Positions 4,057 through 29,762 of a stretch of DNA of 64,000 bases are shown in pieces. The notes under the pieces are model-generated. The model did not search any database. It was not told the DNA's origin and saw only the letters and a list, made by a program, of their open reading frames with translations. The DNA is from Candidatus Cloacimonadales bacterium (lineage in GTDB: Bacteria > Cloacimonadota > Cloacimonadia > Cloacimonadales > DAONDQ01), in the NCBI GenBank assembly GCA_963662275.1, contig OY759316.1:1696001-1760000 (forward strand), in the 5' to 3' direction. A program made the position numbers and the translations under genes. Within the stretch, counting starts at the first letter, position 1. Each line of letters begins with the position of its first letter.

Positions 4057-4329
4057 TCATTTCAATAGAGTACCATTTTTTGTCGAGGGGGTTTTATAGT
4101 CAAGGCATGATAATGATTTAAATGAACTTCCCCTAAAAGCAAATAACTACAAGCTTCCTCATATTCTACCAGGGAATATGAAATCAATTACAAATAACGC
4201 ATCTTCTTAAGCAAATCTAAAATACTTCATGAATCGTGGCAGCATCGTTTACGTTGCTTTTTACGGAATTAGAAGAGAAGCCACCGCCTGAAGTCCCTCC
4301 CACACAGCTAAAGGAGTTGCCACAAGTGT

Positions 4330-4405
4330 AGTCGCAATTTGTGACCTCAAGTTGGGGGCGCGTAGTCAAGAAACACTTGACAACACTCATGTATCATTTA
4401 GGTTG
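4330..4405 (+). promoter_or_regulatory. Promoter module: ORF6N-type palindrome, TCAAG-N5-CTTGA inverted repeat and TTGACA (-35 at 4377)
   Basis: The same arrangement recurs at 11296-11370 (TTGACA 11346) and 15409-15470 (TTGACA 15443). Confidence 0.55.
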
Positions 4406-4421
4406 TTAATAAGAGGTAACA

Positions 4422-4688
4422 ATGCCAACAATAAGTATGTTTTTTGGAATAATCATCAGGATGTATTGTGGAAATGCGGAACACAATCCACCACATTTTC
4501 ATGCATATTATCAGGAATATACAGCAACATATGATATTGTGCAGGAAGCTTTTCTGTCTGGTAATCTACCTTCAAAGCAATCTAAGATTGTGGAAGCCTG
4601 GGCTGCCATTCATAAAGATGATCTCATTGCTGATTGGCAATTGGCAACAAACGGTGAATTGCCTTTACCCATTGAACCTCTTAAATAG
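4422..4688 (+). CDS. DUF4160 family protein (putative toxin of a DUF4160/DUF2442 pair)
   Basis: MPTISMFFGIIIRMY...EHNPPHFHAYY...PIEPL is the typical family signature; RBS GAGG. Confidence 0.85.
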   Translation: MPTISMFFGIIIRMYCGNAEHNPPHFHAYYQEYTATYDIVQEAFLSGNLPSKQSKIVEAWAAIHKDDLIADWQLATNGELPLPIEPLK

Positions 4689-4696
4689 GATTATAT

Positions 4697-4912
4697 ATGA
4701 TTAAACCAATAAAAGTAACCCCTTTAGATGACTATGTTCTTGAACTGACAATGTCGGATATGACGATTAAAAAGTTTAACGTTAAGCCATTCCTTAACAA
4801 AGGAAAGTTCAAAGAATTGATGGATATTAATCTCTTCCGCCAGGCAAGAATCTCTTTCGATGCCATCGAATGGCCCAATGGGGTAGATATTGATCCTGAT
4901 CTGCTGATATAG
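4697..4912 (+). CDS. DUF2442 family protein (putative antitoxin)
   Basis: VTPLDDYVLELT...AIEWPNGVDIDPDLL; directly downstream of the DUF4160 gene. Confidence 0.85.
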   Translation: MIKPIKVTPLDDYVLELTMSDMTIKKFNVKPFLNKGKFKELMDINLFRQARISFDAIEWPNGVDIDPDLLI

Positions 4913-5026: not shown

Positions 5027-5383
5027 CGTGGCAGCAGCACTCATGGTTATACTTATAGCGGAAGTAATGACATTGCAACTGTCGCATGGTATTATTCCAA
5101 TTCCGGTAATACGACTCATACAGTTGGCATCAAGGCAGAAAATGAATTAGGTCTGTATGATATGACCGGCAATGTCAACGAGTGGTGTTGGGACATTTTT
5201 GACGTTTATCCGAGTAACTCTCAAAATAATCCACACGGTGCTATCACTGGGTCTGACCGTATTTACCATGGTGGTGGCTGGGGCAGCAGTCCAGGCAACT
5301 GTACCGTTTCCAGTCGGATTAATGCGGGTGCTACTAGCTACGGCAATAGACTCGGATTTCGTCTTTGCAGGAATTCCAATTAA
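5027..5383 (+). pseudogene. C-terminal fragment of an FGE-sulfatase (SUMF1/CLec-fold) domain protein
   Basis: One frame reads RGSSTHGYTYSGSNDIATVAWY...NELGLYDMTGNVNEWCWD...GGGW...LGFRLCR; no N-terminus or start codon upstream of the domain. Confidence 0.75.
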
Positions 5384-5386
5384 TTT

Positions 5387-5713
5387 TTAATTAGCTACTG
5401 CCCCGCAGCATTTCTTAAATTTCTTCCCGCTCCCACAGGGGCAGGGATCATTACGTCCAATCTATATTTTGAGTATGATCTGGTAAGACACTTCCGGGGC
5501 ATAGATTAGAGCTTTTTCCTGTATCTTTGACTCTAACATATAATCCATTATAATGGCAATCTGCTGTTTAACCGGCAAGCCATCCCAAGTGAGTTCTTTA
5601 ATCGAAGTCTTATTTTTGAAATATTCATATCTTTCTTCTGATACAAGCTCTTTTAAATAGCTCTTTAAACTGAAATAATTCTTTGGCAAAGGTTTAGCAT
5701 CTGATGTCACCAT
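5387..5713 (-). pseudogene. Internally deleted paralog of the SEC-C-tailed protein at 11667-12920
   Basis: N-terminus [20 protein letters not shown] matches the 12920 protein; after an in-frame TAG (5462-5464) the frame continues [24 protein letters not shown]. Confidence 0.8.
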
Positions 5714-5846
5714 AATGAAACTCCTATACTTATAAAACATACTTTAGGATGTTTTCTTGAATAAATAAATCAGAAAAATGGAAAAACTCGTCAATTAAAT
5801 TCATATATATATTTTTGGTTACATGATTTAAGTGATTCAACTCATA

Positions 5847-5953
5847 TGAATCTCGAAGTGATGAAACACGATAGCCCATAGCGTCAGCTATGGGTAAAGA
5901 AGCCTCCAAACCTTTGAACCTCGGCAGGGGTGACACATCTGGAAATTCGAAGG
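5847..5953 (+). repeat. REP-like multi-hairpin element, a diverged relative of the element targeted by the IS110
   Basis: gaatctcgaagtgatgaaa...cccatagcgtcagctatggg...tgacacatctggaaattcgaag parallels the reconstituted 7223-7251 + 8994-9080. Confidence 0.55.
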
Positions 5954-6343: not shown

Positions 6344-7251
6344 TGAATCTCGCAGAGATGAAAGATCATAGCCTGTAGTGGAATGAAATGGAACTACTTG
6401 CAGAAGGTGTTAGGTGCTAGGTGTTAGTAAGGAAGGAAATAGGGATTAGGGAATCGTTCTGATTGAATTCAAGAAGCGTTAAACCAATAAACAAAGATAT
6501 CCTTCATTCTGAATCTCGCAGAGATGAAAGATCATAGCCTGTAGTGGAATGAAATGGAACTACTTACAGAAGGTGTTAGGTGTTAGGTGCTAGGTGTTAG
6601 GTGCTAGGTGTTAGTAAGGAAGGAAATAGGGATTAGGGAATCGTTCTGATTGAATTCAAGAAGCGTTAAACCAATAAACAAAGATATCCTTCATTCTGAA
6701 TCTCGCAGAGATGAAAGATCATAGCCTGTAGTGGAATGAAATGGAACTACTTACAGAAGGTGTTAGGTGTTAGGTGCTAGGTGTTAGTAAGGAAGGAAAT
6801 AGGGATTAGGGAATCGTTCTGATTGAATTCAAGAAGCGTTAAACCAATAAACAAAGATATCCTTCATTCTGAATCTCGCAGAGATGAAAGATCATAGCCT
6901 GTAGTGGAATGAAATGGAACTACTTACAGAAGGTGTTAGGTGTTAGGTGCTAGGTGTTAGTAAGGAAGGAAATAGGGATTAGGGAATCGTTCTGATTGAA
7001 TTCAAGAAGCGTTAAACCAATAAACAAAGATATCCTTCATTCTGAATCTCGCAGAGATGAAAGATCATAGCCTGTAGTGGAATGAAATGGAACTACTTGC
7101 AGAAGGTGTTAGGTGCTAGGTGTTAGGTGATAGGTGTTAGTAAGGAAGGAAATAGGGATTAGGGAATCGTTCTGATTGAATTCAAGAAGCGTTAAACCAA
7201 TAAACAAAGATATCCTTCATTCTGAATCTCGCAGAGATGAAAGATCATAGC
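6344..7251 (+). repeat. Tandem array of five full units (166, 187, 173, 173, 180 bp) plus a sixth unit interrupted by the IS110
   Basis: Units start at 6344, 6510, 6697, 6870, 7043, 7223. Length differences come from 3, 6, 4, 4, 5 copies of an internal AGGTG(T/C/A)T heptamer. Confidence 0.95.
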
Positions 7252-7333
7252 TTACTATAGGAAGGTTAGAAAATTAAGGTAGAAAAACCTCCCTCGTTGA
7301 TATACATAGATCAAATCAACAAAGGAGGTAACA

Positions 7334-8611
7334 ATGATTACCACATCAAAATCTAACCCAAAGAGGTTTTTTGTCAACTCAGAAATGATGCTTGTTGGCA
7401 TTGATATCAGCAAGCACAAACACAGTGTGTATTTTTGTGATTTTACAGGTGAACGGAAGCGTAAGCCATTTTTTATTACAAACAATCATGATGGTTTTCA
7501 GTATCTGCTAAAAGAAGCAGAACAGCAAAAGCGTTTGTGGAATCTGAACGAGATTGTATTTGGAATGGAACCAACAGGTTCATATGTAAAGCCACTCCAG
7601 TACTTCTTGGAAGAACGCTGCTATCAAATCCAAAGCATCAACCCATTACACACTAAAAGATGGAAGGATATTGAAGATAATCATCCATCCAAGAATGATT
7701 TGAAAGACAGTATTATCATTACCTCTCTGTTAAGAATGGGCAAGAGCATCCATCATCGGAGACCTGAAGGTGTTTTCGCGGAGTTGAACAACTATGCAGC
7801 TTATTATCACCAGTTAATCACAGATATTCGCAGGCAGAGGAACTATCTGGAAGCCTCTTATGCCTGTTACTTTCCTGAATTGAGTAACTTTTTCAAATTT
7901 AACAGTACGGGAGTAATGTATATCATGGAGTGTTTTCCTCTTCCTCAGGATATCGTAAATGCAGGATATGAGAATTTTCTGAAGATTATGAAAACAAAAA
8001 GCAAAGGGTGCATAGCTACAGAGAAGCTTCACAGTTTATATCAGGTATCTCTAACAAGTATTGGCATGAGTCAGGGAGCGGATAGTGCGAGAGTGGTCAT
8101 AAATGCGATCTATGAGGATATCAGCTATAAACAATACCATCTCAAACAAATCAAAACAGCAATCATGACATGTGTAGATAAAATCAGTTATGGATCGTTA
8201 TTGGTGACAATACCTGGTTTGAGTAAAGTATCAGTGGGGTTAATTCTGGCGGAGACTGGAGATATCAATCAATATGGTCGATATCAGGATTTAGTCAAAC
8301 TTGCCGGATTGAGTTTAAAACACAATCAATCAGGAGAATACCATGGGCAATATCATATCTCTAAGGTAGGAAGAGTAAGGTTGCGAAGGATCTTGTATAT
8401 GCTTACTCTGGAAATGATTATAAACAATCAATTAATCAATCAGATATATAATTATCAAGTAAAAAAGCGAGGTAATAACAAGGTCAAAACTATCGTTTCT
8501 TTGAGCAGTAAATTACTGGGAATCATGTACTCAATGGTTAAATATGAAAGGTCGTTTGATCCTGAACAGCGAAAGCTATATGCAGGTTATTTAACTGAAA
8601 ATAATCAGTGA
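7334..8611 (+). CDS. IS110-family DEDD recombinase/transposase
   Basis: VGIDISKHKH, GMEPTGSY, KNDLKDS (DEDD RuvC-like), TIPGLS, AETGDI, LAGL...QSG (catalytic Ser), SKVGRVRLRRILY; RBS AGGAGG. Confidence 0.93.
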   Translation: MITTSKSNPKRFFVNSEMMLVGIDISKHKHSVYFCDFTGERKRKPFFITNNHDGFQYLLKEAEQQKRLWNLNEIVFGMEPTGSYVKPLQYFLEERCYQIQSINPLHTKRWKDIEDNHPSKNDLKDSIIITSLLRMGKSIHHRRPEGVFAELNNYAAYYHQLITDIRRQRNYLEASYACYFPELSNFFKFNSTGVMYIMECFPLPQDIVNAGYENFLKIMKTKSKGCIATEKLHSLYQVSLTSIGMSQGADSARVVINAIYEDISYKQYHLKQIKTAIMTCVDKISYGSLLVTIPGLSKVSVGLILAETGDINQYGRYQDLVKLAGLSLKHNQSGEYHGQYHISKVGRVRLRRILYMLTLEMIINNQLINQIYNYQVKKRGNNKVKTIVSLSSKLLGIMYSMVKYERSFDPEQRKLYAGYLTENNQ

Positions 8612-9085: not shown

Positions 9086-9185
9086 GTAACGCGGTATTCA
9101 TACCGTGTTTCGCTGAATTAATTCAGTATTATTCAGAGCAGATACAATATAAATAATGCGGTACACGGTATAAATACCGCGTTAC
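9086..9185. repeat. REPIN-like inverted pair (GTAACGCG family)
   Basis: gtaacgcggtattcataccgtg ... cacggtataaataccgcgttac; related copies at ~10846-10940 and ~13030-13129, half copies at ~6192 and ~10795. Confidence 0.75.
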
Positions 9186-9336
9186 AAACTTGATATCACA
9201 ATTTGCGACCTCAAGATTGTCTACGCACTGCATAGGCTTTTCTCTGTAATGCTTAATTTTTCATTATTAATTCTTAATGCATGTCTTCCAATCTGCTAAT
9301 CTGCTCTGATAATTCTTAATTTTTAACTTTTAATTT

Positions 9337-10689
9337 TTAATTGCTTACTGCCCCGCAGCATTTCTTATATTTCTTTCCGCTGCCGCATGGACATGGATCG
9401 TTTCTTCCGATTTTCGGAGCATTAGAAATGACCGGTTGAACAACAAATTCAATCTCATCTTTCTTTTTTGGTTTATATAATTCATCATCATCATCAAAGA
9501 ACGCTTTATACTCACCAATTGGGTCATCAGAGTTACTCCAGGGATCTTCTCCATCAGTAAACGGTATATCCTGATCCCAATCTATGGAAGAGTTTTTGTC
9601 ATAAAAATCGAAGCGAAGCTGATCTGCATTTTCATCGATGATGACAGGTTTAACGGATAATGAGAGTTCCTTTGGTGTATGACCTCTATGTATCCAGGAG
9701 CGGTAATGATTATAGTAATCAGTTACTGTAATATAGAGTCTGTTCTTTGTTTCAATATTGTAATCCTCAAGGAATAGGTCATCATACAAATCATTGATTT
9801 CGAATGGTTTCGCCCCATAATTGAAATCCATTGTGATATGTAAAATAAATACCATCGCGGCTGCTGGTTCAAGCCCGAAAGTACTTATCAGTAAGTCTTT
9901 TAATGCCAGATATTGAGGTGTTTCTTCAAAATAATCCTCTTTACCATACATCATTAACTCATCTTCCTTAGGGATATATAGTTTTTTGTACTTAATTCCA
10001 TGAGCCAATTTTTCGTAATCGTCCATATTTATAAGATTACATAGATTGACTATTCTGCCATCGATAAAACTGAAATATGGACATAGCAGACTATATTCTG
10101 TGATATATGAGTTCAATTGTTCATCAGTTAGGATATCTTCTTTCCAAAAGAAATGTGACCTATAAATTTTAATTAAATTCGCTGGTTCAAAGATTCCATA
10201 GAAATTCAGACATGGATTAATACGGGAAATGAGTGGTTGAACTAAGCTTCTTCCCAATTCTACTGTCTTTTCCTTAATTGCATACAAAACTTCTGCAATT
10301 TCGTCAAAAAGGATATACGTAGATTTTATCTGCTTTCGCTTATTCGGATTAGGATAGGAATCAATGCGGTAGATCATGAAATTATAATTCAAGTACCAGT
10401 ATCCGTTATTGATAGTGTTCTGTTCCAAGGGAATTTGTGAGCTGATACTCTGAAGTATGGTCAAGGAGGCTTCCGGTGCATATATAAGTACTTTTCTGAT
10501 ATATTCTTCATTGACAACGTATCTCTGCATTAAATCAACTTGCTGATGAGAATCTAATTTATCCCATTCATCTTCAATCATTTCAGTTTTCACACCGAAT
10601 AAAATAAAACGTTCAACCGAAGAAAGCTCTTTTAGATAACTTCTTAAACTAAATTTATCTGCAGCGATTTTCTTTTTGGATTTATTCAT
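9337..10689 (-). CDS. SEC-C metal-binding motif protein
   Basis: C-terminal [33 protein letters not shown] motif and acidic linker; paralog of 11667-12920. Confidence 0.85.
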
Positions 10690-10845
10690 ATTTTTGCTTT
10701 GAAACTCCTTGTTTGTGTAAATCTGGAAATTTTAAAAATTAGTCAATTAATTTTGCTTAGCATTGCTCTGAGAATTGCAACGGGATGCAAACCGTAACGC
10801 GTTATTTATAACGTGTAACGCTGAATTCATTCAGTTCTTTACCTG

Positions 10846-11345
10846 TAACGCGTTATTCCATAACGTGTGCTGCTGAATTCATTCAGTTCCGTGCAGATAC
10901 TTTATAAATAAAGCGATACACAGTATGAATACTGCGTTACGATGTCTGACAATCTTGAAGTCGCAATTTGCGATATCAAGATGCAGTGGAAGAAGACAAT
11001 CGAACTATTGAGAAATCCTCAATAGTTGAGGTTACAATCCAAGTATAATCGGCATTTGAACGGCAGTTATTAACTAATCCTTAATAACTGAAAGAGGACA
11101 GATTCCCATCGGGAAGATAGATTCTAACACCGGATTTCAATCCGATGAAATGTAATGAGAGTGACTCCCTATTTCCCCCTTCTTTTGTAAAAGAGGGGGG
11201 AAATAGGGGGAGTTAGTTCTGCTCTGCTAATCTTTACCTGTCGTCCCCACTGGACTGATATGTTAGGGTGTACTCTGTCGCCGGATTGCTTCTTGAACTT
11301 GAAGTCTCAATATGCGACCTCAAGATTCTGAAAATCAAGAAACCC
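10846..11345. repeat. Composite palindrome block, copy 1
   Basis: REPIN, ORF6N-type palindrome, two RhuM-type palindromes, a REP-like element with a nested CCCCCT/AGGGGG palindrome, then another ORF6N-type palindrome; colinear with 13030-13547 + 15409-15450. Confidence 0.85.
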
Positions 11346-11390
11346 TTGACAATGCTATTGTCTCATTTATGTTGTTATTAAGAGGTAACA

Positions 11391-11609
11391 ATGCCAACAA
11401 TCAAACCCATAAAAGTTACTCCCTTAGATGACTATGTACTTGAACTGACGATGTCTGATATGACGATTAAAACATTCAACGTAAAACCATATCTAAGCTT
11501 GGGTAAGTTTCAGGAGCTAAAGGACATCAGTCTTTTTCGACAGGCAAGAATCTCTTTCGATGCCATCGAATGGCCTAATGGTGTAGATATTGACACTGAT
11601 CTACTCTGA
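11391..11609 (+). CDS. Orphan DUF2442 protein carrying the first four residues of the DUF4160 protein
   Basis: MPTI + KPIKVTPLDDYVLELT...; close paralog of 4697-4912 with the DUF4160 gene's RBS/start context. Confidence 0.8.
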   Translation: MPTIKPIKVTPLDDYVLELTMSDMTIKTFNVKPYLSLGKFQELKDISLFRQARISFDAIEWPNGVDIDTDLL

Positions 11610-11666
11610 TAGTCTGTTTCTGCCAATCTTCCATCTTAAATCTTCAATCTTAAATTCTGCCAATTC

Positions 11667-12920
11667 TTAATCAGCCACTGTCCCGCAGCATTTCTTATAC
11701 TTCTTGCCGCTACCGCAGGGACATAGATCGTTTCGACCTATCTTATCAGCTTTAGAGATAACAGGCAGTACTTGCTCTTCATCATCATCAAATTCATCAT
11801 AGTCATCAGGTTCTTCAACATCAGCGAAATCAAAAAACCGCTGGTCAGAGTCTATCTTTAGAATCCTGTATGGTTTCTCAGAAGATTTCTTTTTTATAGG
11901 TTCAATTCCATGCATTTTGTAATCAATTTCAAGAGGTGTGTGCCCTCGATTGAACCAAGTCCTAAAATGATTAGAAAAATCAAACCATAATTCTGTATAA
12001 TAATTTTTTAGTTCTAATTCAACCTTATTGATCTCCAAATTGATGATTTGTAGCGGATTCCTACCAAAGTGAAGTTCTGCAACCACGCGAGAGATAGTTT
12101 CAAGCGCAAAATCTTCCTCCAATTGAAGATCATATATCATGAATCGAGCTAACTCCATGAATTGAGGCGAGAAATTAATGCAGGAGATACCATAGCTCAT
12201 TAACTCAGATTTTGGGGGAACATATAATGGTTTGTCTTTGATTCCCTGGTGTAAGGAACGATAAGCTTCTAAAGTAACTCTGAGCACAATCTGATCATCC
12301 TTCAGAACCAGATCATTGTAGTAATGTTTATAGTTTTTCAGCAATTTCCGCAATTCCTGGTCAGGTAGAGAATCGATATTCTGTGATCTATAAATCTTGA
12401 TCAGGTTCTCGATCTCAAGTATGCCATAAAAGTTCAGGCAAGGTTCAATGTAGGAAATGAATGGCTGGATTACTTTTCTTTTAGTTTCAAGTTTCGTTAG
12501 GTTGAAAGAAGTCAGAATTGGAAGTAAATCTTCAAAAATAAAAAATTCATCCAGTTCCTCTTTATCTCTACATATTTCAAGGAAATTGCATTTATTATTA
12601 ATGATGAAGTTATTATAGAGATAGATTTCTCCATCTTCTGCTTCTTTTCGGGTTAGTGGCTTTTTGTTCAATAGCTTGAGTATTATGTGATAAGATATTT
12701 CAGGTGTATAGATGAGTATTGTCTCCAGGTTCTTGGGCTTTGTAAAATATTCGAACATGATGTTGATCTGCATTCTAACAGGTAAACCTTCCCAGATAAG
12801 TTCTTTGATAGAAGTCTTTGATTGAAAATATGCATACCTTTCATAGGATTCAAGCTCTCTCAAGTAGCTCTTTAGCCCGAAGTAATTCTTTGGTAAAGGT
12901 TTAGTATCTGATGGTACCAT
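11667..12920 (-). CDS. SEC-C metal-binding motif protein
   Basis: [12 protein letters not shown], acidic linker, [21 protein letters not shown]. Confidence 0.85.
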
Positions 12921-13029
12921 AACAAACTCCTTATTCCGTATAAATCTGGAAATGGAATAAATCAGTCAATTAAATTTGCTTCTTATTGGATTGAGCCAAG
13001 AAAAGGAACTCTAAATGTAACGCGGTTTG

Positions 13030-13547
13030 TAACGCGGTATTTATACCGTGTTCCGCTGAATTCATTCAGTTCTCTACAGAGCAGATACTTTATAAATAAA
13101 GCGATACACGGTATGGAATACCGCGTTACGATGCGTTCCAATCTTGAAGTCACAATTTGCGACCTCAAGTTGGGGTGGAAGAAGAACAACTGAACTTTTG
13201 AGAAATCCTCAATAGTTGAGGTTACAATCCAACTATAATCAGCATCTTAATGTCAGTTATTAACGAATCCTCAATAACTGAAAGAGGACAGATTCCCATC
13301 GGGAAGATAGATTCTAACACTGGATTTCAATCCGGTGAAATGTACTGAGAGTGACTCCCAATTTCCCCCTTCTTTTGTAAAAGAGGGGGATAAAGGGGGA
13401 GTTAGTTCTGCTCTGCTAATCTTCATCTGTCATCCGCACGGGACTGATATGTTAGGTTGTGCTTTGGTCGCCGGATTGAAATCCGAGCGTTAATATGTTG
13501 CATCCGTACCGGATTGTTTCTTGAACTTGAAGTCGTATATTGCGAAC
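13030..13547. repeat. Composite palindrome block, copy 2 (last palindrome split by an IS; resumes at 15409)
   Basis: Colinear with 10846-11345. Confidence 0.85.
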
Positions 13548-15408
13548 GAGACTGTTCATGAAGTTATTCATAATATTCAATAAGTTAGAAAGTAGCAAGT
13601 TGAAAAAAGTGGTCGAAACGGTCATAATTTAACATACCTTCCAGAATTGACAGATAAGCTCTGCTAAGGACACCAAATCACAAGTTAAGCTTTTTGACTA
13701 AAATTGAAAAACACGCGATTATAAGTAATGTTTCGAAGCCGTTTCTGACTAAATGTGTAGTTAAAATCATATAAAATAGTTCTTTACAAGTTTTTTGCTA
13801 TAGCTTCAATGGCATTTGTTACCTGGTAACAAAAGGGAGGATATTATGACAAAAAAACACTCCAATTCAAGAAGCGGTAAGTGTTAGTCATGAAAGTAAC
13901 CAATACCATGTAAGTATTAACGTACCATTTTCATTCACTTTGCCTGAGACAACATCAAACCACAAGTTCTTAATAGCGTTTCTACGCTTATTAGTAGGAA
14001 TAGGCGGAGACAACCTCCTTACACTTCAGCAAATAGCTGATCTGTTTAACTACGCAGACCGCAGGAATGTACATAATTTCTGGCAAGAGTTTGAGCAGCA
14101 TGGTCATGATATCCTGGCATATTTAAGCCGGAAAGTTGACCTGCTGGAGTGTATTCCTCAGATCGAGAATTTTGTTATCAATAACCTGCTTTTACCTTTA
14201 AATGTCATGTATCAGGAGTTCATCAGCCATCATGATTTTAAAATGTCCTATACCACTTTCTGCAAATATGCTTCTCAGGTCAATTCTCTGTCTGTAGTTA
14301 AGCAAGCTCAGAAGCTTCTTCTGAAAAAGACAGTAGGCGGTGATGCTGTACATCTGCTGAAACTGCTTGCCGGTCAGCAGAATACACCTGTTATCTGTGA
14401 CAGACTCCTGGAACAAATGAAGACTGCTAAAGGCAATACATCCCATAGAACCGCCGATGCAAAGCCGTTCCATAGTCTGGAACGCAAGAACCTGTGTCTG
14501 CTGGTACATTACCTGGTTGGAAGCGGTATGAACTTCGAGACGATAGCTTTGCTGCTCAACACCTGTAAAGCTACAGTCTCAAATCTCTGGCATGAAATCG
14601 CTGACCTGCAGAGCCTGATTCTGAACTCAATCGGTAAGTGGAGCGGAAAGATCAGCATTGATGAGAAATATGTGAAGATCAAAGGTATTCCGTACTATGT
14701 CATCAGTATTGTTGATTTTGTGACTCACATCCCTCTGTTTTGTGAGTTGTATCCTGACACAAAGAAAGAATCATTCGAAGCATGTTTCAGAACCTTCAGA
14801 CAGCTCTACAGGAAAGATCCAACCCTGATTGTCAGTGATGGCAGTAAATCGTTAGCAGTTGCAAGAAAAACAGTGTTTCCAAAAGTCCATTACCAACTCT
14901 GTAAGTTCCATAAGATACGAAATCTCTTCAAAAGAATCAGTCAATGTCATCTCCCTGAAGACAGGGACAAGTTCTTTAAGAAGAGGATTATGAAAGCTTT
15001 CCGAAGAGAAACGGCGGGCGGAAGGAAAAAGGGTATCGCAAGCCTGACAGCTATTACTCCCCCAACCGCCGCCGAATACATCAAAAGCAATATCATTAGT
15101 GATTGGAGACACCTCAGCAAAGGTTTGACTTCCAATGTCTCTGAACGCTGGAACCGCAAAATCAAGAAGGTGACATCCGGTAGATTTGGACTAAAATCTG
15201 AAGAAACCACCCGCAACCTTGTGTTTTCGCTTTGGTTCAAAGAACTGGTCGATAAAGGTCAACCAATCATGCGTCAGGAATCACTTTTAGCAAGTTTAAA
15301 TATCTCCCGCATATGTCAAGAAAATGTGGATTGGTCGCACTTAGACCACTTTTTCTCTGTCACTACCAATAAGGCTGCGTAAAATGGAGGTTAATTTTGA
15401 ACAGTCTC
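13548..15408 (+). mobile_element. DDE insertion sequence, copy 1 (1,861 bp)
   Basis: 11-bp terminal inverted repeats GAGACTGTTCA; 8-bp target duplication TTGCGAAC (13540-13547 and 15409-15416); same length and identical protein as 59289-61149. Confidence 0.95.
13940..15382 (+). CDS. DDE transposase (IS6-like first Asp context, CxxH motif as in IS256/ISH6-type enzymes)
   Basis: SIDEKYVKIKG, IVSDGS, QLCKFHK, TSNVSERWN. The true start may be ATG 13846 via a frameshift (see findings). Confidence 0.88.
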   Translation: MPETTSNHKFLIAFLRLLVGIGGDNLLTLQQIADLFNYADRRNVHNFWQEFEQHGHDILAYLSRKVDLLECIPQIENFVINNLLLPLNVMYQEFISHHDFKMSYTTFCKYASQVNSLSVVKQAQKLLLKKTVGGDAVHLLKLLAGQQNTPVICDRLLEQMKTAKGNTSHRTADAKPFHSLERKNLCLLVHYLVGSGMNFETIALLLNTCKATVSNLWHEIADLQSLILNSIGKWSGKISIDEKYVKIKGIPYYVISIVDFVTHIPLFCELYPDTKKESFEACFRTFRQLYRKDPTLIVSDGSKSLAVARKTVFPKVHYQLCKFHKIRNLFKRISQCHLPEDRDKFFKKRIMKAFRRETAGGRKKGIASLTAITPPTAAEYIKSNIISDWRHLSKGLTSNVSERWNRKIKKVTSGRFGLKSEETTRNLVFSLWFKELVDKGQPIMRQESLLASLNISRICQENVDWSHLDHFFSVTTNKAA

Positions 15409-15500
15409 TTGCGAACTCAAGATGCTGAAAATCAAGAAAAACTTGACAATGCTTGCTTACTTGTTTACTTGTTAATATGTTAGATAAAGCAGGAGTATCC

Positions 15501-16464: not shown

Positions 16465-16678
16465 ATACTGTCTGAGAATTCTCTTCTCTGCTCTGCTCAA
16501 TATTCCATTTTCCATCTTCCATTATGCACGTTCTTAACTCTTCAATCTTAAATCTTTCTCGTTTTCCTTGACAAAACAATTACTATTATTCTTTTATTCT
16601 ACAATATTTACATAGTATTGAATCACATAGGAGAAACTTGAAATCGCAAATTGCGATATCAAGATTGAGGGGGGAAGT

Positions 16679-17194
16679 ATGAATGAGCTAATACTAGCAG
16701 AAACTCAAATCGAAAAGCAAATCATCGAAATCAGAGGCATGAAAGTCATCCTCGATTCTGATTTAGCGATATTGTATGGTGTTGAAACACGAGTTTTGAA
16801 CCAACAAGTTAAACGTAACTTCGAACGCTTTCCAGAAGACTTCATGTTTCAACTAACTTCAGAAGAATTTGCAATCTTGAAATCACAATTTGTGATATCA
16901 AGATGGGGTGGTCGTAGAACTCCTCCTTATGTTTTCACAGAACATGGTGCTCTAATGGCAGCATCAGTACTGAATACTCCCCGTGCTGTTGAAATGAGTG
17001 TTTACATTGTCCGTACATTTGTTAAGCTACGCAGTTTGTATTATCAGCATAAAGAACTGGCAGGTAAAATTGAAGAACTGGAAGCAAAGCTGACTACCCA
17101 TGATCACGCTCTCAACCAAATACTCAAAACTCTGAAACTACTCTTAGAAAAACCTGTTGAAGAAAAACGGAAACCAGTTGGATTTAAGAAATGA
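16679..17194 (+). CDS. ORF6N (KilA-N-like) DNA-binding domain protein
   Basis: IRGMKVILDSDLAILYGVETRVLNQQVKRNFERFPEDFMFQLT...PYVFTEHGALMAASVLN, C-terminal KPVGF. Confidence 0.92.
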   Translation: MNELILAETQIEKQIIEIRGMKVILDSDLAILYGVETRVLNQQVKRNFERFPEDFMFQLTSEEFAILKSQFVISRWGGRRTPPYVFTEHGALMAASVLNTPRAVEMSVYIVRTFVKLRSLYYQHKELAGKIEELEAKLTTHDHALNQILKTLKLLLEKPVEEKRKPVGFKK

Positions 17195-17251
17195 TCTGAT
17201 GATTACTTCTAAATCTTCAATCTACCATCTTCAATCTTACATTTTGTACCG

Positions 17252-18265
17252 TTACTTCTTCTTTTCCAGTTTCTTCACGTTTTCCACAACTTCCACAAAA
17301 TGCTTTTCAACAGGTGAAGGCTGTTCGATTTGTTCCTGATGCCATTTCTCATATTCTGTACGAGCTTTATCTATTGCATCTTCATGTGCTATCTTACCGG
17401 CATGGGTAAGAATATCACGTCCTGTAAGTTTCAGGAATTCGTCGAGTTTAGTGATCCAGTCTTTCATGTGCATGGGAATTCGATTCAAAGCTTGTAGTTC
17501 TGCAAAGTCAAGGTACATGGTCACAATTCGTTTCAAGATATCCAATTCATCCGCATTTAAATAGTTTTTCGCTACTTCTGCATCTGCTTTATTCGGAGAA
17601 TCACCAAGCCAATTTGTCATTCCCATGTTTGGTTTATCAGCGCTTGCTCTTTCATAAATGATCTCTGCTGCTGTATGACCATGACTTGCCCAATGCATCT
17701 TATTCTGCATGACTTTAAAGAATGAATGCGATACTTCTGTTTGCGGATCATAGTCTATACTGGTGGCATAAATATCCAGTATCTTTCGCCAGAAGACTTT
17801 CTCGGAAGAACGGATATCTCTGATGCGTGCAAGTAATTCATCAAAGTAATTACCGCCACCGGATTCTTTCAAACGCTTATCATCCAGGACGAAGCCCTTG
17901 ATTATATATTCCCGTAACTGCTTTGTTGCCCATTGACGGAAATGAGTTGCCACAGAAGATTTGATACGATAACCGATGCTGAGTATCATATCAAGATTAT
18001 AGTGTTTTGTAGTGTATGACTTGCTGTCGAGGGCAGTTATTAAGTAATCCTTAATAACTGAATTTGGTTTTAGCTCATGTTCATCGAAGATGTTTTTAAT
18101 ATGAATATTGATGTTTTGAACTGTAGTTTGAAACAAATCAGCAAGCTGCTTCTGATTCAGCCATATAGTTTCGTTTTCCAATCGAGTCTCAATATGAATC
18201 TGACCATCTTTGCTTTGATATAAAAGGAATTCGGTATTTGACTGTACTTTCTTTGACTCTTTCAT
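17252..18265 (-). CDS. Virulence RhuM family protein
   Basis: ETIWLNQKQLADLF, HYNLDMILSIGYRIKS, FRQWAT, IKGFVLDDKRLK, YFDELLARIRDIRSSEK, GHTAAEII. Confidence 0.92.
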   Translation of the reverse strand: MKESKKVQSNTEFLLYQSKDGQIHIETRLENETIWLNQKQLADLFQTTVQNINIHIKNIFDEHELKPNSVIKDYLITALDSKSYTTKHYNLDMILSIGYRIKSSVATHFRQWATKQLREYIIKGFVLDDKRLKESGGGNYFDELLARIRDIRSSEKVFWRKILDIYATSIDYDPQTEVSHSFFKVMQNKMHWASHGHTAAEIIYERASADKPNMGMTNWLGDSPNKADAEVAKNYLNADELDILKRIVTMYLDFAELQALNRIPMHMKDWITKLDEFLKLTGRDILTHAGKIAHEDAIDKARTEYEKWHQEQIEQPSPVEKHFVEVVENVKKLEKKK

Positions 18266-18637
18266 TTTCTTCCCTCCAACTAGATGAATATAGAATAACG
18301 ATCAAGGGTCCTCTATACATGCATAACATAATAAGCATTTCCCATCATAGACATGATTGGATATGCTGTTGAACAAGCTCAAGTAGCAGGGTGATTTTGA
18401 ATATGTATTTGGAAATTGCTTTTTGAAGATTTCTTGGGTTGAATTGGATTTTTACAATTTTAGCAGAGTCTTTTACCAATGGAAGAGATGATTTTCTTTT
18501 CAGAAGTTATCAAATCACTTTGAGATCAGACTTTTTGTGTATGGGCTGATATTGTTTTCAAGTATTTTAGCAAATTGCCTGTAATATTTCGGTTGTTTCT
18601 ATAATTTAGGCAAGACAATCCCGTCGGTAAAATTAAC

Positions 18638-19780
18638 TTACAGTTTACCGCCATCAAAGCAATTTGCCAAAAACAACAGCGACCAAGGCGGTGATCTTGG
18701 TTTTCCGGTAATTGAAGCATGCTGTGTCATCTTTGATTTGCAATTAGGGCAGAGGTCTTTTTCAAATTTGGGAATTACAAAAGTTTTAGCTGTCTGATTC
18801 TTGTCATTAGAATCGGACTTTGCTGGGAAAAAGCTGTTGACCATCTCCCAGACAGATTTTGCCGCCGGACTGAGAAATCCGTAGTATCTGATTTTCTGAA
18901 ATCCCTGCGGCAGAACATGCATCAGGAACTTATTGATAAACTCCACGGAGTCGACGCTTTTAAAGGCGAATTTAGCTGAACCTGCCGGCTTGTATTTAAA
19001 GGTTACCAGCCCGTCCTTTTCCCAAAGGATGCGATTGTTGGTGATGGCGGTCCGATACACATAATTGGCCAAATAAGTCAGAGCCTCCCGACCTTTTCCG
19101 ACGGGTCGGGAGTCTGTGACAAACTCTTTTTGCTGCCAGACTAGCGGGGATATCCGACCAAACAGATGCTGATTTTCCAGTCGAAGCAAATCACGGAATT
19201 TTGCCCGGTAAATCACCGAAAGAGCTTTGACCGGAATCAGGAACTTATTGCCTGCTTTTTGCCATTCCTTTCGTTCTTTATTCCAAGCTCCGCCGGGGAC
19301 TATATAATGAATATGAGGATGATATTCAAGCTGCCTTGTCCAGGTATGAAGTACCCCGGTAAAGCCTGAAACGCCACCGGCATATTTGGGATCTGAAAGC
19401 AATGTCTTTAAGGCTTCAGATGATGCTTTGAACTGAAGATCATAAAGCAGTTTCTGATTTGACAGGCATGTTTTGTGCAGTTCCCGGGGTATGGTGAAAG
19501 TTACCATGAAGTACTTAACCGGCAGCAGTTTGGCAAGCTGCTTTTCCAGCCATTTCGCTGAATCATTACGGCCACACTTCGGGCAGTGACGGTTTTTGCA
19601 GGAATGATAGGAATAATGCAGTTCCGCACATTCCTGGCATAAATAGACTTCTCCGCCCAGTTCAGGTGTCCGGCAAAGGAGAATATCTCTGATCGCTCTT
19701 AAATGGCTTTCCGGTGACTGGTTTCCATATTTTTCCAGATACTCGGACAGGTTGTTTTTGAGAATCCTGCTAAAATCCAT
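18638..19780 (-). CDS. IS91-family (Y2 HUH) transposase with Zn-binding N-terminus
   Basis: HSCKNRHCPKC, VTFTIP, LHTW...YHPHIHYIVPGG (HUH), YLANY (YxxxY), HVLPQGFQKIRYYG, SPP near the C-terminus. Confidence 0.92.
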   Translation of the reverse strand: MDFSRILKNNLSEYLEKYGNQSPESHLRAIRDILLCRTPELGGEVYLCQECAELHYSYHSCKNRHCPKCGRNDSAKWLEKQLAKLLPVKYFMVTFTIPRELHKTCLSNQKLLYDLQFKASSEALKTLLSDPKYAGGVSGFTGVLHTWTRQLEYHPHIHYIVPGGAWNKERKEWQKAGNKFLIPVKALSVIYRAKFRDLLRLENQHLFGRISPLVWQQKEFVTDSRPVGKGREALTYLANYVYRTAITNNRILWEKDGLVTFKYKPAGSAKFAFKSVDSVEFINKFLMHVLPQGFQKIRYYGFLSPAAKSVWEMVNSFFPAKSDSNDKNQTAKTFVIPKFEKDLCPNCKSKMTQHASITGKPRSPPWSLLFLANCFDGGKL

Positions 19781-20653
19781 TTACATCTTATTCATCAGTT
19801 CATTGATGATTTTACATGACTGCTCTCGGGAAACGTTAGTCAAATGCACGTATACCATGGTCGCTCTAAGACTTTCGTGCCCGAGCAAGTCTTTGATGAT
19901 GATGATACTGACACCTGCTTCCAATAAATGTGTGGCATAAGAATGTCTGAGTGTATGACAGGTTACATGCTTAGGGATGCGTGTCTCCTTTAAGGCTGAC
20001 TTCAGAGCTGACCGAAGAGTTTGGACAGAAATCTGGTTCGAGGTTGTCATTCTGTTAATATCAGCCTGTCTGGTGCTTCTGCTCGGGAATAAAAGCTGTC
20101 TGTTCTGATGGGTTTTCCAATATTCCCGGAGTTCCTGATACAATTTTTCAGGCAGAGGTATTGACCTGTCTTTGTTGCCTTTGGATTGCCTTACCGTGAT
20201 GGTCATCAATTCCCGGTTGATATCGGCTATTTTAATCTTGACTGCTTCCGAAATCCTTAATCCGCATTGATAGGTAAGAGTCAGTAAGAGTCGATAATCA
20301 TAAGTATGAATGCGGGAGATAAGCATTCTAACTTCGTCTGTGGTCAGAATCACAGGAAGTTTGTGCTCAATCTTTGCCTTAAAAAAGGTAAAATCCTCTT
20401 GCCTGAAACCAACAACATGGATGAAAAAAAATCTGATGCCATAATAGGCTGATTTTAAACTCTGAGGACTATAATTCTTGACGTTATGCAGGTAGACAAA
20501 ATATGTTCTTACCTGTTCAATAGATAGTGTGCCGGGGTCTTGACCATAATATGATGCTAAAGAAGTGACTTGTCTGATGTAATTGTATTTTGTCTCTCGG
20601 GACACGCCTCGAAGATCAAGGCACTCTAAAAAGCGAACTTCGTATGATTCCAT
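19781..20653 (-). CDS. Tyrosine recombinase/integrase
   Basis: KLPVILT, YQCGLRISEA, KGNKDR, HTLRHSYATHLLEAG, LLGHESLRATMVYVH. Confidence 0.93.
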   Translation of the reverse strand: MESYEVRFLECLDLRGVSRETKYNYIRQVTSLASYYGQDPGTLSIEQVRTYFVYLHNVKNYSPQSLKSAYYGIRFFFIHVVGFRQEDFTFFKAKIEHKLPVILTTDEVRMLISRIHTYDYRLLLTLTYQCGLRISEAVKIKIADINRELMTITVRQSKGNKDRSIPLPEKLYQELREYWKTHQNRQLLFPSRSTRQADINRMTTSNQISVQTLRSALKSALKETRIPKHVTCHTLRHSYATHLLEAGVSIIIIKDLLGHESLRATMVYVHLTNVSREQSCKIINELMNKM

Positions 20654-20965
20654 ACTTACCTCCAGTTAATTTTGGGGGTAAGTATGCTTTTAGTGAGGGT
20701 TCAGTATATCAATAGTTTAAATGCATGAAACACGAGTTTACTGCGAACGGTACTGCTGCTTGCAGCTTCGTTCAACTACAAGCAACAAGCTACAAGCTAC
20801 AAGCTTCTGCAAAGGAAGTCAAGAGCTAAATTTTGATGTTGAAGTATTAGTATTCTTCTCTTTTCTGCTCAATCTTCCATTTTACATCTTAAATCTTACA
20901 TGAATGAAGCAACTCTGGAAGAGCAGACTCCTAAAGTTACAAACTTAAGGAGATAACACAATAGA

Positions 20966-28460: not shown

Positions 28461-28476
28461 CGGTAATCGCTGTTGT

Positions 28477-28672
28477 CGGTAGTCGCTGTCTTTAGCTTGC
28501 GCTATTTGTTGTTGGTAGTCGCTGTCTTCAGCTTGCGCTGCTGTTGTCGGTAGTCGCTGTCTTTAGCTTGCGCTGTTATTTCAGTAACCTAAAGGATACC
28601 ACTACCGGTAACTATTCGGTAACCTGAAGGATACCACTACCGGAGAAGAGTAACCTGAAGGATACTACTACC
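28477..28672. repeat. REP array 5' of the RAYT gene: three type-A copies (+) and three type-B copies (-)
   Basis: Type A GGTAGTCGCTGTCTTYAGCTTGCG; type B reads GGTAGTGGTATCCTTYAGGTTAC on the minus strand. Confidence 0.88.
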
Positions 28673-28689
28673 AAAAGTTAGGAGGGAAC

Positions 28690-29418
28690 ATGCAGTTTAA
28701 CAATAGATATCAGAGATATCACAAGGAAAAACTACCTCATATTCAACCGCAAGAAAGTATAATTTTTATTACAATTAGACTCGATATTCACTTAAATCAG
28801 GAGTATTTTGATCTTTTAATTGCTAAAAAAGCCGAGATTACCAATTCTGTTGAAAATATTCATAATGAAGATGAGCGTAAAATCATATTCAATAAGAAGC
28901 TTTTTGCTGTTCAAGATAAATACTTCGATTGCTATCAAGATACTGGAAATCTCTTTATAAACTCTAAATGTGCTAAGGTTCTCGAAAATGAATTGCATAA
29001 TTTTAATGGCATAATGTATGAATTATACGCCTTTACAATTATGCCTAATCATGTTCACTTTCTATGTAGACCTTTATTGAATTCATCTGGAGAAGAGTAT
29101 TCATTAGCAATCATTATGAATAGAATTAAAGGTCGAACTGCTAGATTTATTAACCAGGAAATGAATAGATCAGGCAGTCTATGGCAAAAGGAATATTATG
29201 ACCATTACGTTAGGAATGAACAAGAGCTTAATAATATAGTCAGATATATTGTTCTAAACCCGATGAAAGCAGGATTGGTTGATCAGCCGAGATTGTGGAA
29301 ATGGACTTGGGTGTCGGAGGAATATAGAAATGTTTTAGATGAGGATTATCTAAAAGAGGAAGATGCTGTTTGGGGAGCAGAGAAAGGTAACCTGAAGGAT
29401 ACCACTACCGATTGGTAA
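28690..29418 (+). CDS. REP-associated tyrosine transposase (RAYT / Y1 HUH)
   Basis: KLPHIQ, FITIRL, IMPNHVHFL (HUH), LWQKEYYDHYVRNE, YIVLNPMKAGLV, WKW; flanked by GTAG-type REPs. Confidence 0.9.
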   Translation: MQFNNRYQRYHKEKLPHIQPQESIIFITIRLDIHLNQEYFDLLIAKKAEITNSVENIHNEDERKIIFNKKLFAVQDKYFDCYQDTGNLFINSKCAKVLENELHNFNGIMYELYAFTIMPNHVHFLCRPLLNSSGEEYSLAIIMNRIKGRTARFINQEMNRSGSLWQKEYYDHYVRNEQELNNIVRYIVLNPMKAGLVDQPRLWKWTWVSEEYRNVLDEDYLKEEDAVWGAEKGNLKDTTTDW

Positions 29419-29682
29419 GCGCTGTTGTCGGTGGGCGCTGTCTTTAGCTTGCGCTTATTAACAGTAACCTAAAGGATACCACTACCAGTACATAAATCGG
29501 TAACCTGAAGGATACCACTACCGGAGAAGAGTAACCTAAAGGATACCACTACCGGAGAAGAGTAACCTAAAGGATACCACTACCGGAGAAGAGTAACCTA
29601 AAGGATACCACTACCGGAGAAGAGTAACCTGAAGGATACCACTACCGGTGAATAAAACGGTAACCTAAAGGATACCACTACC
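29387..29682. repeat. REP array 3' of the RAYT gene: eight type-B copies (five consecutive at a 31-bp period) and one type-A copy
   Basis: GTAACCTRAAGGATACCACTACC at 29387, 29464, 29500, 29531, 29562, 29593, 29624, 29660; type A near 29430. Confidence 0.9.
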
Positions 29683-29762
29683 GATCGGGTAAACGCATGT
29701 TTCCTTTGACAAAAATCATCTTCTTATTTGCTTGTACATAATTGAAAGAATTGAAGGTTTTT

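Follow-up and report, generated by a model that had tools for sequence, protein, structure and literature searches.

Regulatory sites can be written into coding sequence, as in the lac and gal systems, where auxiliary operators lie inside genes (lac O2 inside lacZ, gal OI inside galE). Here we describe a 27-nt palindrome found inside ORF6N and RhuM genes, together with a duplicated non-coding block that carries extragenic versions of it, in a 64,000-nt stretch of DNA from a Candidatus Cloacimonadales bacterium (contig OY759316.1, positions 1,696,001 to 1,760,000; hereafter the window, to which coordinates refer). The genome under study is a single contig of 4.38 Mb with 39% G+C. As with the lac and gal auxiliary operators, a palindromic, putative protein site is written in codons, and the gene may have a second site close to its start. 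Unlike those operators, the site lies in the gene of the presumed regulator itself, its position is constant from phylum to phylum, and two gene families carry it; it shows compensatory changes, use of two reading frames and covariation with a predicted recognition helix, and a nearby second site is usually of another class.

The ORF6N gene of the window (16679-17194, plus strand; PF10543) and the RhuM-family gene beside it (17252-18265, minus strand; PF13310) both match the PADLOC profile PDC-S05, with E values of 2.1e-56 and 2.4e-144, respectively. Genes of these two families are abundant single-gene candidate defence systems with a mechanism unexplained so far. A preprint reports that one RhuM-domain PDC-S05 gene protected E. 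coli against T7, T5 and T4, with plating of T7 and T5 lowered ~1000-fold. Literature searches on ORF6N, on the motif strings and on rhuM with palindrome, at the level of titles and abstract openings, found no description of the element. We propose, with a probability of roughly 60%, that the intragenic palindrome is a self-encoded operator and that the palindromes in the block, itself a recently copied or homogenised spacer, are orphaned relics.

The intragenic palindrome of ORF6N and RhuM genes

The palindrome inside the resident ORF6N gene (16876-16902) forms 12 of 13 complementary pairs around an A:T core and codes for LKSQFVISR. The palindrome inside the RhuM gene (18034-18060) codes for SVIKDYLITA, and an AT-rich centre (AAWTT) is found in ORF6N- and RhuM-type palindromes alike. 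For comparison we used 80 ORF6N loci from many phyla, fetched by peptide patterns that excluded the palindrome motif, and 83 RhuM genes in 79 metagenome loci. Complementarity of 11-13 of 13 pairs was present in 77 of the 86 register-fixed sequence windows from the ORF6N loci, and the site lay at codons ~64-77 in 78 of the 80 loci. Of the 83 RhuM genes, 72 had 10 or more complementary pairs out of 13 at codons 69-72, represented by 50 distinct 27-mers; across the 252 kb of RhuM loci, 61 sequence windows reached 12 of 13 pairs, versus one after shuffling. The ORF6N-type pattern was found in forward order in 36 of 203 genomes, and a reversed pattern used as a control gave no match in the same number. 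ORF6N genes of this type occurred in 4 of 50,697 records of a phage collection. No Rfam family matched at the palindromes.

Synonymous re-coding lowered the mean number of pairs from 11.34 to 5.20 in ORF6N genes (69 of 86 genes lay above all 200 resamples) and from 10.75 to 8.02 in RhuM genes (31 of 83 above all resamples). Changes in the arms are compensated despite altered residues (e.g., NRSQFATG, LLSQFAIT and LKCQFGIS), and five ORF6N genes carry the same DNA core in a second reading frame, read as EVVANCDHL. A covariation count over 102 rows, pre-filtered for at least 10 pairs, contained 193 cells with two-sided changes versus 53 in shuffles, none of 500 shuffles reaching the observed number, and 13 cells with one-sided changes of wobble type. 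The palindrome-coded segment is poorly conserved and has no invariant residue in the ORF6N protein alignment, and in the structural model it appears as a low-confidence loop after helix 61-70. On these comparisons, the palindrome is kept by selection on nucleotides and not on protein; a fixed intragenic palindrome under nucleotide selection is what would be expected of a self-encoded operator.

The upstream neighbours at 75 ORF6N loci included genes for ATP synthase alpha (4), DinB-type polymerases (3), HTH_3 proteins (6) and type I restriction subunits (3). The ORF6N gene of four Verrucomicrobiota (L053, L061, L101 and L102) lies between atpA and atpG, and at three of these four loci a palindrome is found 13-35 nt before the start codon.

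Helix residues and the palindrome core

The core of the ORF6N-type palindrome, defined by the base pair at palindrome positions 10/18, was tabulated against helix residues 39 and 42 in 99 ORF6N genes. A G:C core was accompanied by R39 in 52 of 54 genes and by E42 in 49 of 54, an A:T core by Q42 in all 38 genes, and a C:G core by R42 in all 5. Arginine usually contacts guanine and glutamine adenine, and the observed pairings of residue and base fit these contacts. Residues 37-46 form a helix in the ORF6N model, which also contains a long C-terminal helix; the predicted recognition helix of the resident protein reads VLNQQV. At position 42 the mutual information is 1.09 bits, the same as at position 72, which is encoded by the palindrome itself.

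An ORF6N tree from which the helix and palindrome columns had been excluded puts the minimum number of changes at 26 for one trait and 23 for the other. Nine independent supported contrasts were concordant in 8.9 cases on average over 200 random pairings and were never opposite (p ~0.004). Three genes from one genus, ~90% identical elsewhere, are of E-, Q- and R-type in helix and site together. The covariation of recognition helix and site is thus found in independent ORF6N lineages, with the close linkage of helix and site as a caveat. RhuM helix residues 47-54 track the core triplet of their palindrome (AAG, CGG or GCA) with z of 14-24, as calculated without a tree-aware control. A profile comparison of the N-terminal parts of ORF6N and RhuM gave a probability of 0.6%, which does not support homology, and searches of solved structures by sequence returned none for ORF6N and chance-level rows only for RhuM.

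Because helix and site are coupled and the nucleotides are under selection, we interpret the palindrome within the gene as the duplex site cognate to the DNA-binding domain that the same gene encodes. The N-terminal helix-turn-helix domain would recognize the site as a dimer, and the operator would travel with the gene and limit its expression wherever the gene lands, probably by acting as a transcriptional roadblock. Since ORF6N genes land in arbitrary contexts, an internal site could provide context-independent self-limitation, and it could explain self-regulation even within an atp operon. Binding to the putative self-encoded operator and the resulting effect on expression are a proposal, derived from sequence comparison. 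A codon-embedded site with an amino-acid-to-base code would give a direct handle on the target of the N-terminal domain, and a readable code of this kind would permit simple swap experiments.

Several observations weigh against this proposal. The 20 sites found upstream of ORF6N genes comprise 6 cognate, 11 purely non-cognate and 3 hybrid sites; since they are mostly non-cognate, a simple two-operator autoregulation loop is not supported. A second cognate operator near the promoter, as in looping of the lac or gal type, is likewise not seen in the window, where the leader is of G:C-type and the protein of A:T-type. Six of eight tested genomes with orphan ORF6N-type palindromes carry no PF10543 gene, and two of those six (G045 and G039) also carry no PF13310; orphan palindromes precede HepT-like, OLD/AAA_15, RhuM, DUF1016 and other genes. 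Only 60-90 nt separate helix and palindrome in the gene, a distance at which mosaic recombination could co-transfer both without a functional link, and one locus (L034) differs from its relatives along a single 140-nt stretch that covers helix and site. ORF6N and RhuM genes are mosaic in general; a test for discordance between N- and C-terminal parts, as would result from exchange at the palindrome, gave r of 0.31 for ORF6N (control 0.25) and 0.75 versus 0.84 for RhuM, and did not localise breakpoints to the palindrome. A fold search matched DNA-binding domains only weakly, with a hit of SKI/Dachshund type alone (best E 0.075). The sites in the block resemble the resident gene and foreign alleles about equally, so that either could be their source, and self-complementary arms with varying sequence would also fit a hairpin or cruciform.

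The non-cognate sites could have a function of their own in a specificity network, in which each gene has its own cognate codon operator, of one of several discrete helix-base classes, and the leader and array copies serve proteins of other classes. Such proteins might be encoded by paralogous genes or, as ORF6N- or anti-repressor-type proteins, be introduced by phages and mobile elements. If this were so, the arrays would place adjacent defence and toxin-antitoxin genes under the control of foreign regulators, or would act as junctions for the exchange of leaders and gene modules. We consider such a network improbable.

The duplicated block is a spacer of a tandem gene array

The first-pass annotation of this DNA had described a ~500-bp non-coding block in two copies, made up of a string of hairpin elements, and our alignments agree. 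Copy A spans 10845-11356 and copy B spans 13027-13547 plus 15417-15461. The two are 88.1% identical across 453 nt and 90.9% across a further 44 nt (blastn), and a global alignment matches in 462 of 570 columns (81%), a 46-nt extra hairpin element of B being counted. Every element on the annotated list is present in both copies and in identical order: a REPIN (an inverted pair of repetitive extragenic palindrome [REP] hairpins), an ORF6N-type palindrome, two RhuM-type palindromes, a REP-like element, a G/C-rich palindrome and a second ORF6N-type palindrome. Four elements of each copy are extragenic versions of the 27-nt palindromes found inside ORF6N and RhuM genes.

Copy B is split by an insertion sequence (IS) of 1861 bp (13548-15408, plus strand) that encodes a MULE/Mutator-type DDE transposase (13940-15382). 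Its 8-bp target duplication, TTGCGAAC, is found at 13540-13547 and 15409-15416. The split of B had been correctly recognized in the annotation, but its second segment had been started at 15409; since 15409-15416 belongs to the target duplication, this segment begins at 15417. The genome holds 39 full-length copies of the IS, 36 of them with an 8-bp target duplication; no target preference is apparent and one of the 39 lies within a palindrome, so we regard the position of the IS in block B as incidental.

The blocks lie in a tandem array with a period of 2.19-2.22 kb. The minus strand of its units carries SEC-C-motif genes, two at 9337-10689 and 11667-12920 and a third, truncated, near 5382-5740, and each comes with its own leader, REPIN and ORF6N-type palindrome; the plus strand carries small genes (a DUF4160/DUF2442 pair, DUF2442, and a zeta-toxin-like pair). 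Around the blocks, nucleotide identity is 56% between the SEC-C coding sequences, 55% between their leaders and 59% in the sequence past the promoter -35 element, directly beyond which the similarity of A and B stops. At 81-88% identity, against 55-59% in its surroundings, the block is therefore much younger than those surroundings or has been homogenised. The block is thus spacer DNA from an array of accessory genes in tandem; it was recently copied or homogenised, and it is a patchwork of independent hairpin elements.

The REPIN of block A (10845-10940) consists of two inverted GTAACGCG-type REP hairpins (10845-10868 and 10918-10940), and an additional direct REP copy lies beside it at 10792-10837. 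The first ORF6N-type palindrome, A1 (10954-10980, plus strand), has 11 of 13 pairs, a G:C core and an 18-nt gene-like extension to 10998, with which it translates as ILKSQFAISRCSGRR. It is followed by a RhuM-type palindrome with a 10-bp stem and arms of the GAACT...AGTTG class (11002-11028), and by a second one (11064-11090) that shares 26 of 27 bases with the site inside the RhuM gene. A REP-like double hairpin (11099-11152) belongs to a family of ~20 copies in the genome. The G/C-rich long palindrome at 11163-11213, with a 21-bp stem and a DNA fold of -18.9 kcal/mol, has a few copies in this genome and in a genome of the same genus (G001). The second ORF6N-type palindrome, A2 (11298-11324, plus strand; 10 of 13 pairs), lies 22 nt upstream of a promoter-like TTGACA-16-TATGTT (11346-11373), which is followed by a DUF2442 gene (11391-11609). 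A scan for sites of sigma-70 type returned 23 sites versus 18.2 expected, so that promoter assignments are weak.

In block B, the REPIN (13029-13129) has hairpin arms that differ from those of block A. The ORF6N-type palindrome B1 (13143-13169, plus strand) has 11 of 13 pairs, a hybrid A/C core and a 19-nt gene-like extension to 13188, with which it translates as ILKSQFATSSWGGRRT. The two RhuM-type palindromes (13192-13218 and 13254-13280) form weaker hairpins than their counterparts in A. They are followed by the REP-like element (13289-13342), the G/C-rich palindrome (13353-13402) and a REP-like hairpin present in B and not in A (~13462-13512). The ORF6N-type palindrome B2 (plus strand) is split by the IS into a left part (13526-13547) and a right part (15417-15421), with TTGACA then at 15443-15448. 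The REPINs of A and B differ by coordinated changes in all four arms, with T/A in A and G/C in B; judged from the sequences, either the stems were maintained or another REPIN allele may have been swapped in.

Older units of the array carry a third, shorter copy of REPIN and ORF6N-type palindrome (9086-9215; palindrome 9189-9215, plus strand, 10 of 13 pairs) and a degenerate ORF6N-type palindrome (4325-4351, plus strand, 8 of 13 pairs), which precedes the DUF4160-DUF2442 pair and the same promoter module as lies beside A2. Unit A is without DUF4160: at 11391-11402 its DUF2442 frame opens with the first four codons of DUF4160 (MPTI) and follows the promoter module, as compared with the region of the intact pair (4422-4712 / 4422-4912). 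A 173-187-bp unit is present in five tandem copies at 6344-7320, directly upstream of an IS110-family transposase gene (7334-8611). A sub-threshold match to the Acido-Lenti-1 RNA lies at 5849-5894 on the minus strand (36.8 versus 37 bits), with weaker matches inside the 173-187-bp repeats.

Genome-wide, the ORF6N-type 27-mer (up to 7 mismatches) occurs at 10 places, 7 of them in the window between 4325 and 16876; with the IS-split copy as the eighth in the window, the eight lie clustered within 13 kb. Copies beyond those listed in the annotation are found at 4325, at 9189, in the ORF6N leader at 16637 and in the leaders of two DUF1016 genes outside the window. The RhuM-type site occurs at 3 places. 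The ORF6N leader palindrome (16637-16663, plus strand) lies 16 nt before the start codon and has 12 of 13 pairs and a G:C core. A near-identical 60-nt leader, spanning palindrome, ribosome-binding site and first codons, is common to ORF6N (16622-16686) and two DUF1016/YhcG-like genes at genome positions 908481 and 913898, one of which is split into two frames; we assign the two presumptively to DUF1016 from their protein sequence. The near-identity suggests a portable leader module. All three leaders are of G:C-type, unlike the A:T-type resident protein. At loci from one family of the order (L014, L017, L018, L021 and L041), a conserved 30-nt hairpin element of GTCATCCCGGACTTGATCCGGGATCCAGAA type precedes the leader palindrome, and composite hairpin strings near these palindromes therefore recur elsewhere.

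The whole genome searched with the ORF6N protein (tblastn) gave the gene and two short pieces of 16 and 19 residues only: ILKSQFAISRCSGRRQSNY at 10952 (E 0.13) and ILKSQFATSSWGGRRT at 13141 (E 0.031). Similarity to the gene in the first ORF6N-type piece of each block extends ~4 nt before and 17-19 nt past the palindrome (in B1 over 14 of 18 downstream bases), and these coding-like tails bear out the suggestion in the annotation that the pieces derive from genes. The pieces match ORF6N genes of other Cloacimonadota at 38-39 of 45 positions and the resident gene at 36-37 of 45. The ORF6N-type copies of the array and blocks have 8-11 of 13 pairs versus 12 in the gene and in the leader; as DNA they are predicted to form weaker hairpins than those two sites, and the hairpins of B are weaker than those of A. 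Their cores are G:C or hybrid, and the resident protein and its intragenic site are of A:T-type, so the block copies would be poor sites for the resident protein. In the proposal put forward here, the block copies would be partly decayed, mostly non-cognate sites that ORF6N and RhuM genes left behind or that became detached from them, carried along by local duplication or conversion. Other genomes contain ORF6N genes truncated at the palindrome (one locus, L024, lacks residues 1-65, and the fragment at another, L057, ends at residue 68), which makes a relic or scar origin plausible; arrays of abutting 27-mers are also present in other genomes. The copies may have originated as scars or by spread of the unit itself.

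Two further mobile units lie in the window. A 2454-bp unit that combines an integrase with an IS91-type Y2 transposase (18323-20776) is present, near-identical, at 12 other places, and several of its left flanks end in a similar hairpin of AGTTACAAACTT type, which suggests that the unit inserts beside another REP family. Arrays of 31- and 36-nt repeats (28462-29688) enclose a Y1 transposase gene (28690-29418), and the genome contains 15 Y1_Tnp matches.

Alternative explanations and known systems

The block could instead be what remains of an ORF6N-RhuM pair after deletions that began or ended at fragile palindromes, with no HUH enzyme involved. We regard this as possible but clearly the less probable account. 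The block pieces, ORF6N-type and then RhuM-type, have the order and strand seen in the convergent genes at 16679-18265, and deletions of this kind would account for the 17-19 nt of coding sequence kept past the ORF6N-type palindromes, for the ORF6N genes cut at the palindrome elsewhere and for one locus (L034) in which synteny with its relatives stops right after a common downstream palindrome. Each block would, however, need at least three deletions with one end at a palindrome edge, and where a gene pair would leave one site of each type, a block contains a pair of ORF6N-type and a pair of RhuM-type sites that differ in arm class; the spacers separating the pieces retain no homology to the gene pair (as high a score was reached by 114-146 of 200 shuffles), and the arrays of abutting 27-mers in other genomes look like spread of the unit itself. 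The annotation had offered scars left by a hairpin-processing HUH enzyme as one option, of which the scar may hold and the enzyme does not: the palindromes are very improbable as substrates at which a RAYT (REP-associated tyrosine transposase) or the IS91-type Y2 transposase moves or deletes genes. What suggested these enzymes is the presence in the window of the Y2 transposase, which with its integrase lies 370 bp from RhuM, and of the RAYT-like Y1 gene; the palindromes moreover end in CTTG...CAAG or GAAC...GTTC, which we take to resemble the target tetranucleotides of IS91. Yet none of the 13 copies of the 2454-bp unit has an ORF6N- or RhuM-type palindrome in its flanks, the Y1 gene of the window, the one examined among the 15 Y1_Tnp matches of the genome, is flanked by its own, different 31-nt repeats and not by the palindromes, and palindrome-bearing ORF6N genes stand alone in housekeeping contexts across phyla with no HUH enzyme nearby. 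Many dispersed copies, as expected of REP or REPIN elements, are found for the GTAACGCG REP (~8 places) and the REP-like element (~20) and not for the ORF6N- and RhuM-type palindromes. Integron attC sites are imperfect palindromes of 57-141 bp at cassette 3' ends, beside an integron integrase; the sites here measure 27 nt, and the nearby integrase is part of the 13-copy IS91-type unit. The other option in the annotation, that the intergenic variants are silent cassettes whose transfer into the ORF6N and RhuM genes diversifies the encoded proteins, is scarcely credible. Variants of gene segments do lie nearby in the same strand orientation, and the palindrome region is the most divergent between close relatives (53-57% identity between L035 and L034, versus 87-100% on either side). 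The donors, though, measure ~50 nt and amount to two near-identical copies without spacer homology, the 16- and 19-residue pieces in place of several cassettes homologous to a long variable stretch, and the segment that they would replace is a loop of poor conservation and low model confidence. Since the helix changes along with the site, a site imported alone would break the match; with G:C or hybrid block sites and an A:T-type resident protein, copying into the gene would do exactly that. Contigs from 4 runs of 2 studies showed no other letters at 16876-16902 or 18034-18060 among the matches listed, although contigs hide rare variants; two contig sets (X1 and X2) cover the stretch without differences, and where contigs join within the block region they do so at REP-family copies, which fits contigs from other loci. 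One contig of depth 2.8 (X4) that links the two ORF6N palindromes, running backwards from 16902 to 16633, was too weak to use.

A different explanation, which we think unlikely though less so than the network, is that the palindromes act as structures: hairpins or cruciforms in single-stranded DNA, in supercoil-extruded DNA or in mRNA, recognized by shape by the host machinery or another factor. A stem just upstream of a ribosome-binding site could, for example, control translation or mRNA stability, the block then being a string of such hairpins. The arms vary freely while complementarity is kept (94.6% of cells paired versus 27-42% with a slid partner), the AAWTT-type centre recurs in both families, extragenic copies lie mostly ~5-50 nt before a start codon and occur inside the atp operon of the four Verrucomicrobiota, where a promoter operator makes little sense, and palindromes persist in genomes without an ORF6N or RhuM gene. 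On the other hand, the wobble signal is absent on the coding strand (13 one-sided cells versus 71 unpaired), and among 64 mismatches in strand-oriented extragenic sites A-C and C-A account for 19 and G-T and T-G for 12. A pure shape element does not predict a core that is conserved across phyla and covaries with helix residues, and the lack of an Rfam match offers it no support. Given the flanking non-cognate and orphan copies and the close linkage of helix and site, a hairpin or cruciform role keeps some probability despite the absent wobble signal.

Under the self-operator proposal, gene-like palindromes in spacers near ORF6N and RhuM genes would be stray sites, and annotators should be warned against recording them as pseudogenes or cassettes. 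Mosaics of the type formed by REP elements and bacterial interspersed mosaic elements with RAYT enzymes are likewise strings of different short intergenic hairpins, and the GTAACGCG REPIN and the 20-copy REP-like element fit that description; unlike their components, palindromes of ORF6N type (10 places) and of RhuM type (3 places) are scarce, stay near their genes and occur inside coding sequence as well. The silent cassettes of pilE/pilS and vlsE are also gene-like fragments near an expressed gene in the same orientation, whereas the fragments here are tiny and near-identical, correspond to a dispensable loop and would unmatch protein and site. Palindromic elements of Rickettsia are tolerated in open reading frames, where they alter the protein, as is the palindrome here; those elements, however, measure ~100-150 bp and are scattered in unrelated genes, whereas the present one measures 27 nt and occupies one homologous position in a gene family. 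The immunity classes of phage repressors and operators resemble the ORF6N system in being discrete, with helix residues and operator bases that change together; they differ in that the cognate site here is predicted to lie within the coding sequence of a single-gene candidate defence system and not at a promoter in the immunity region of a phage.

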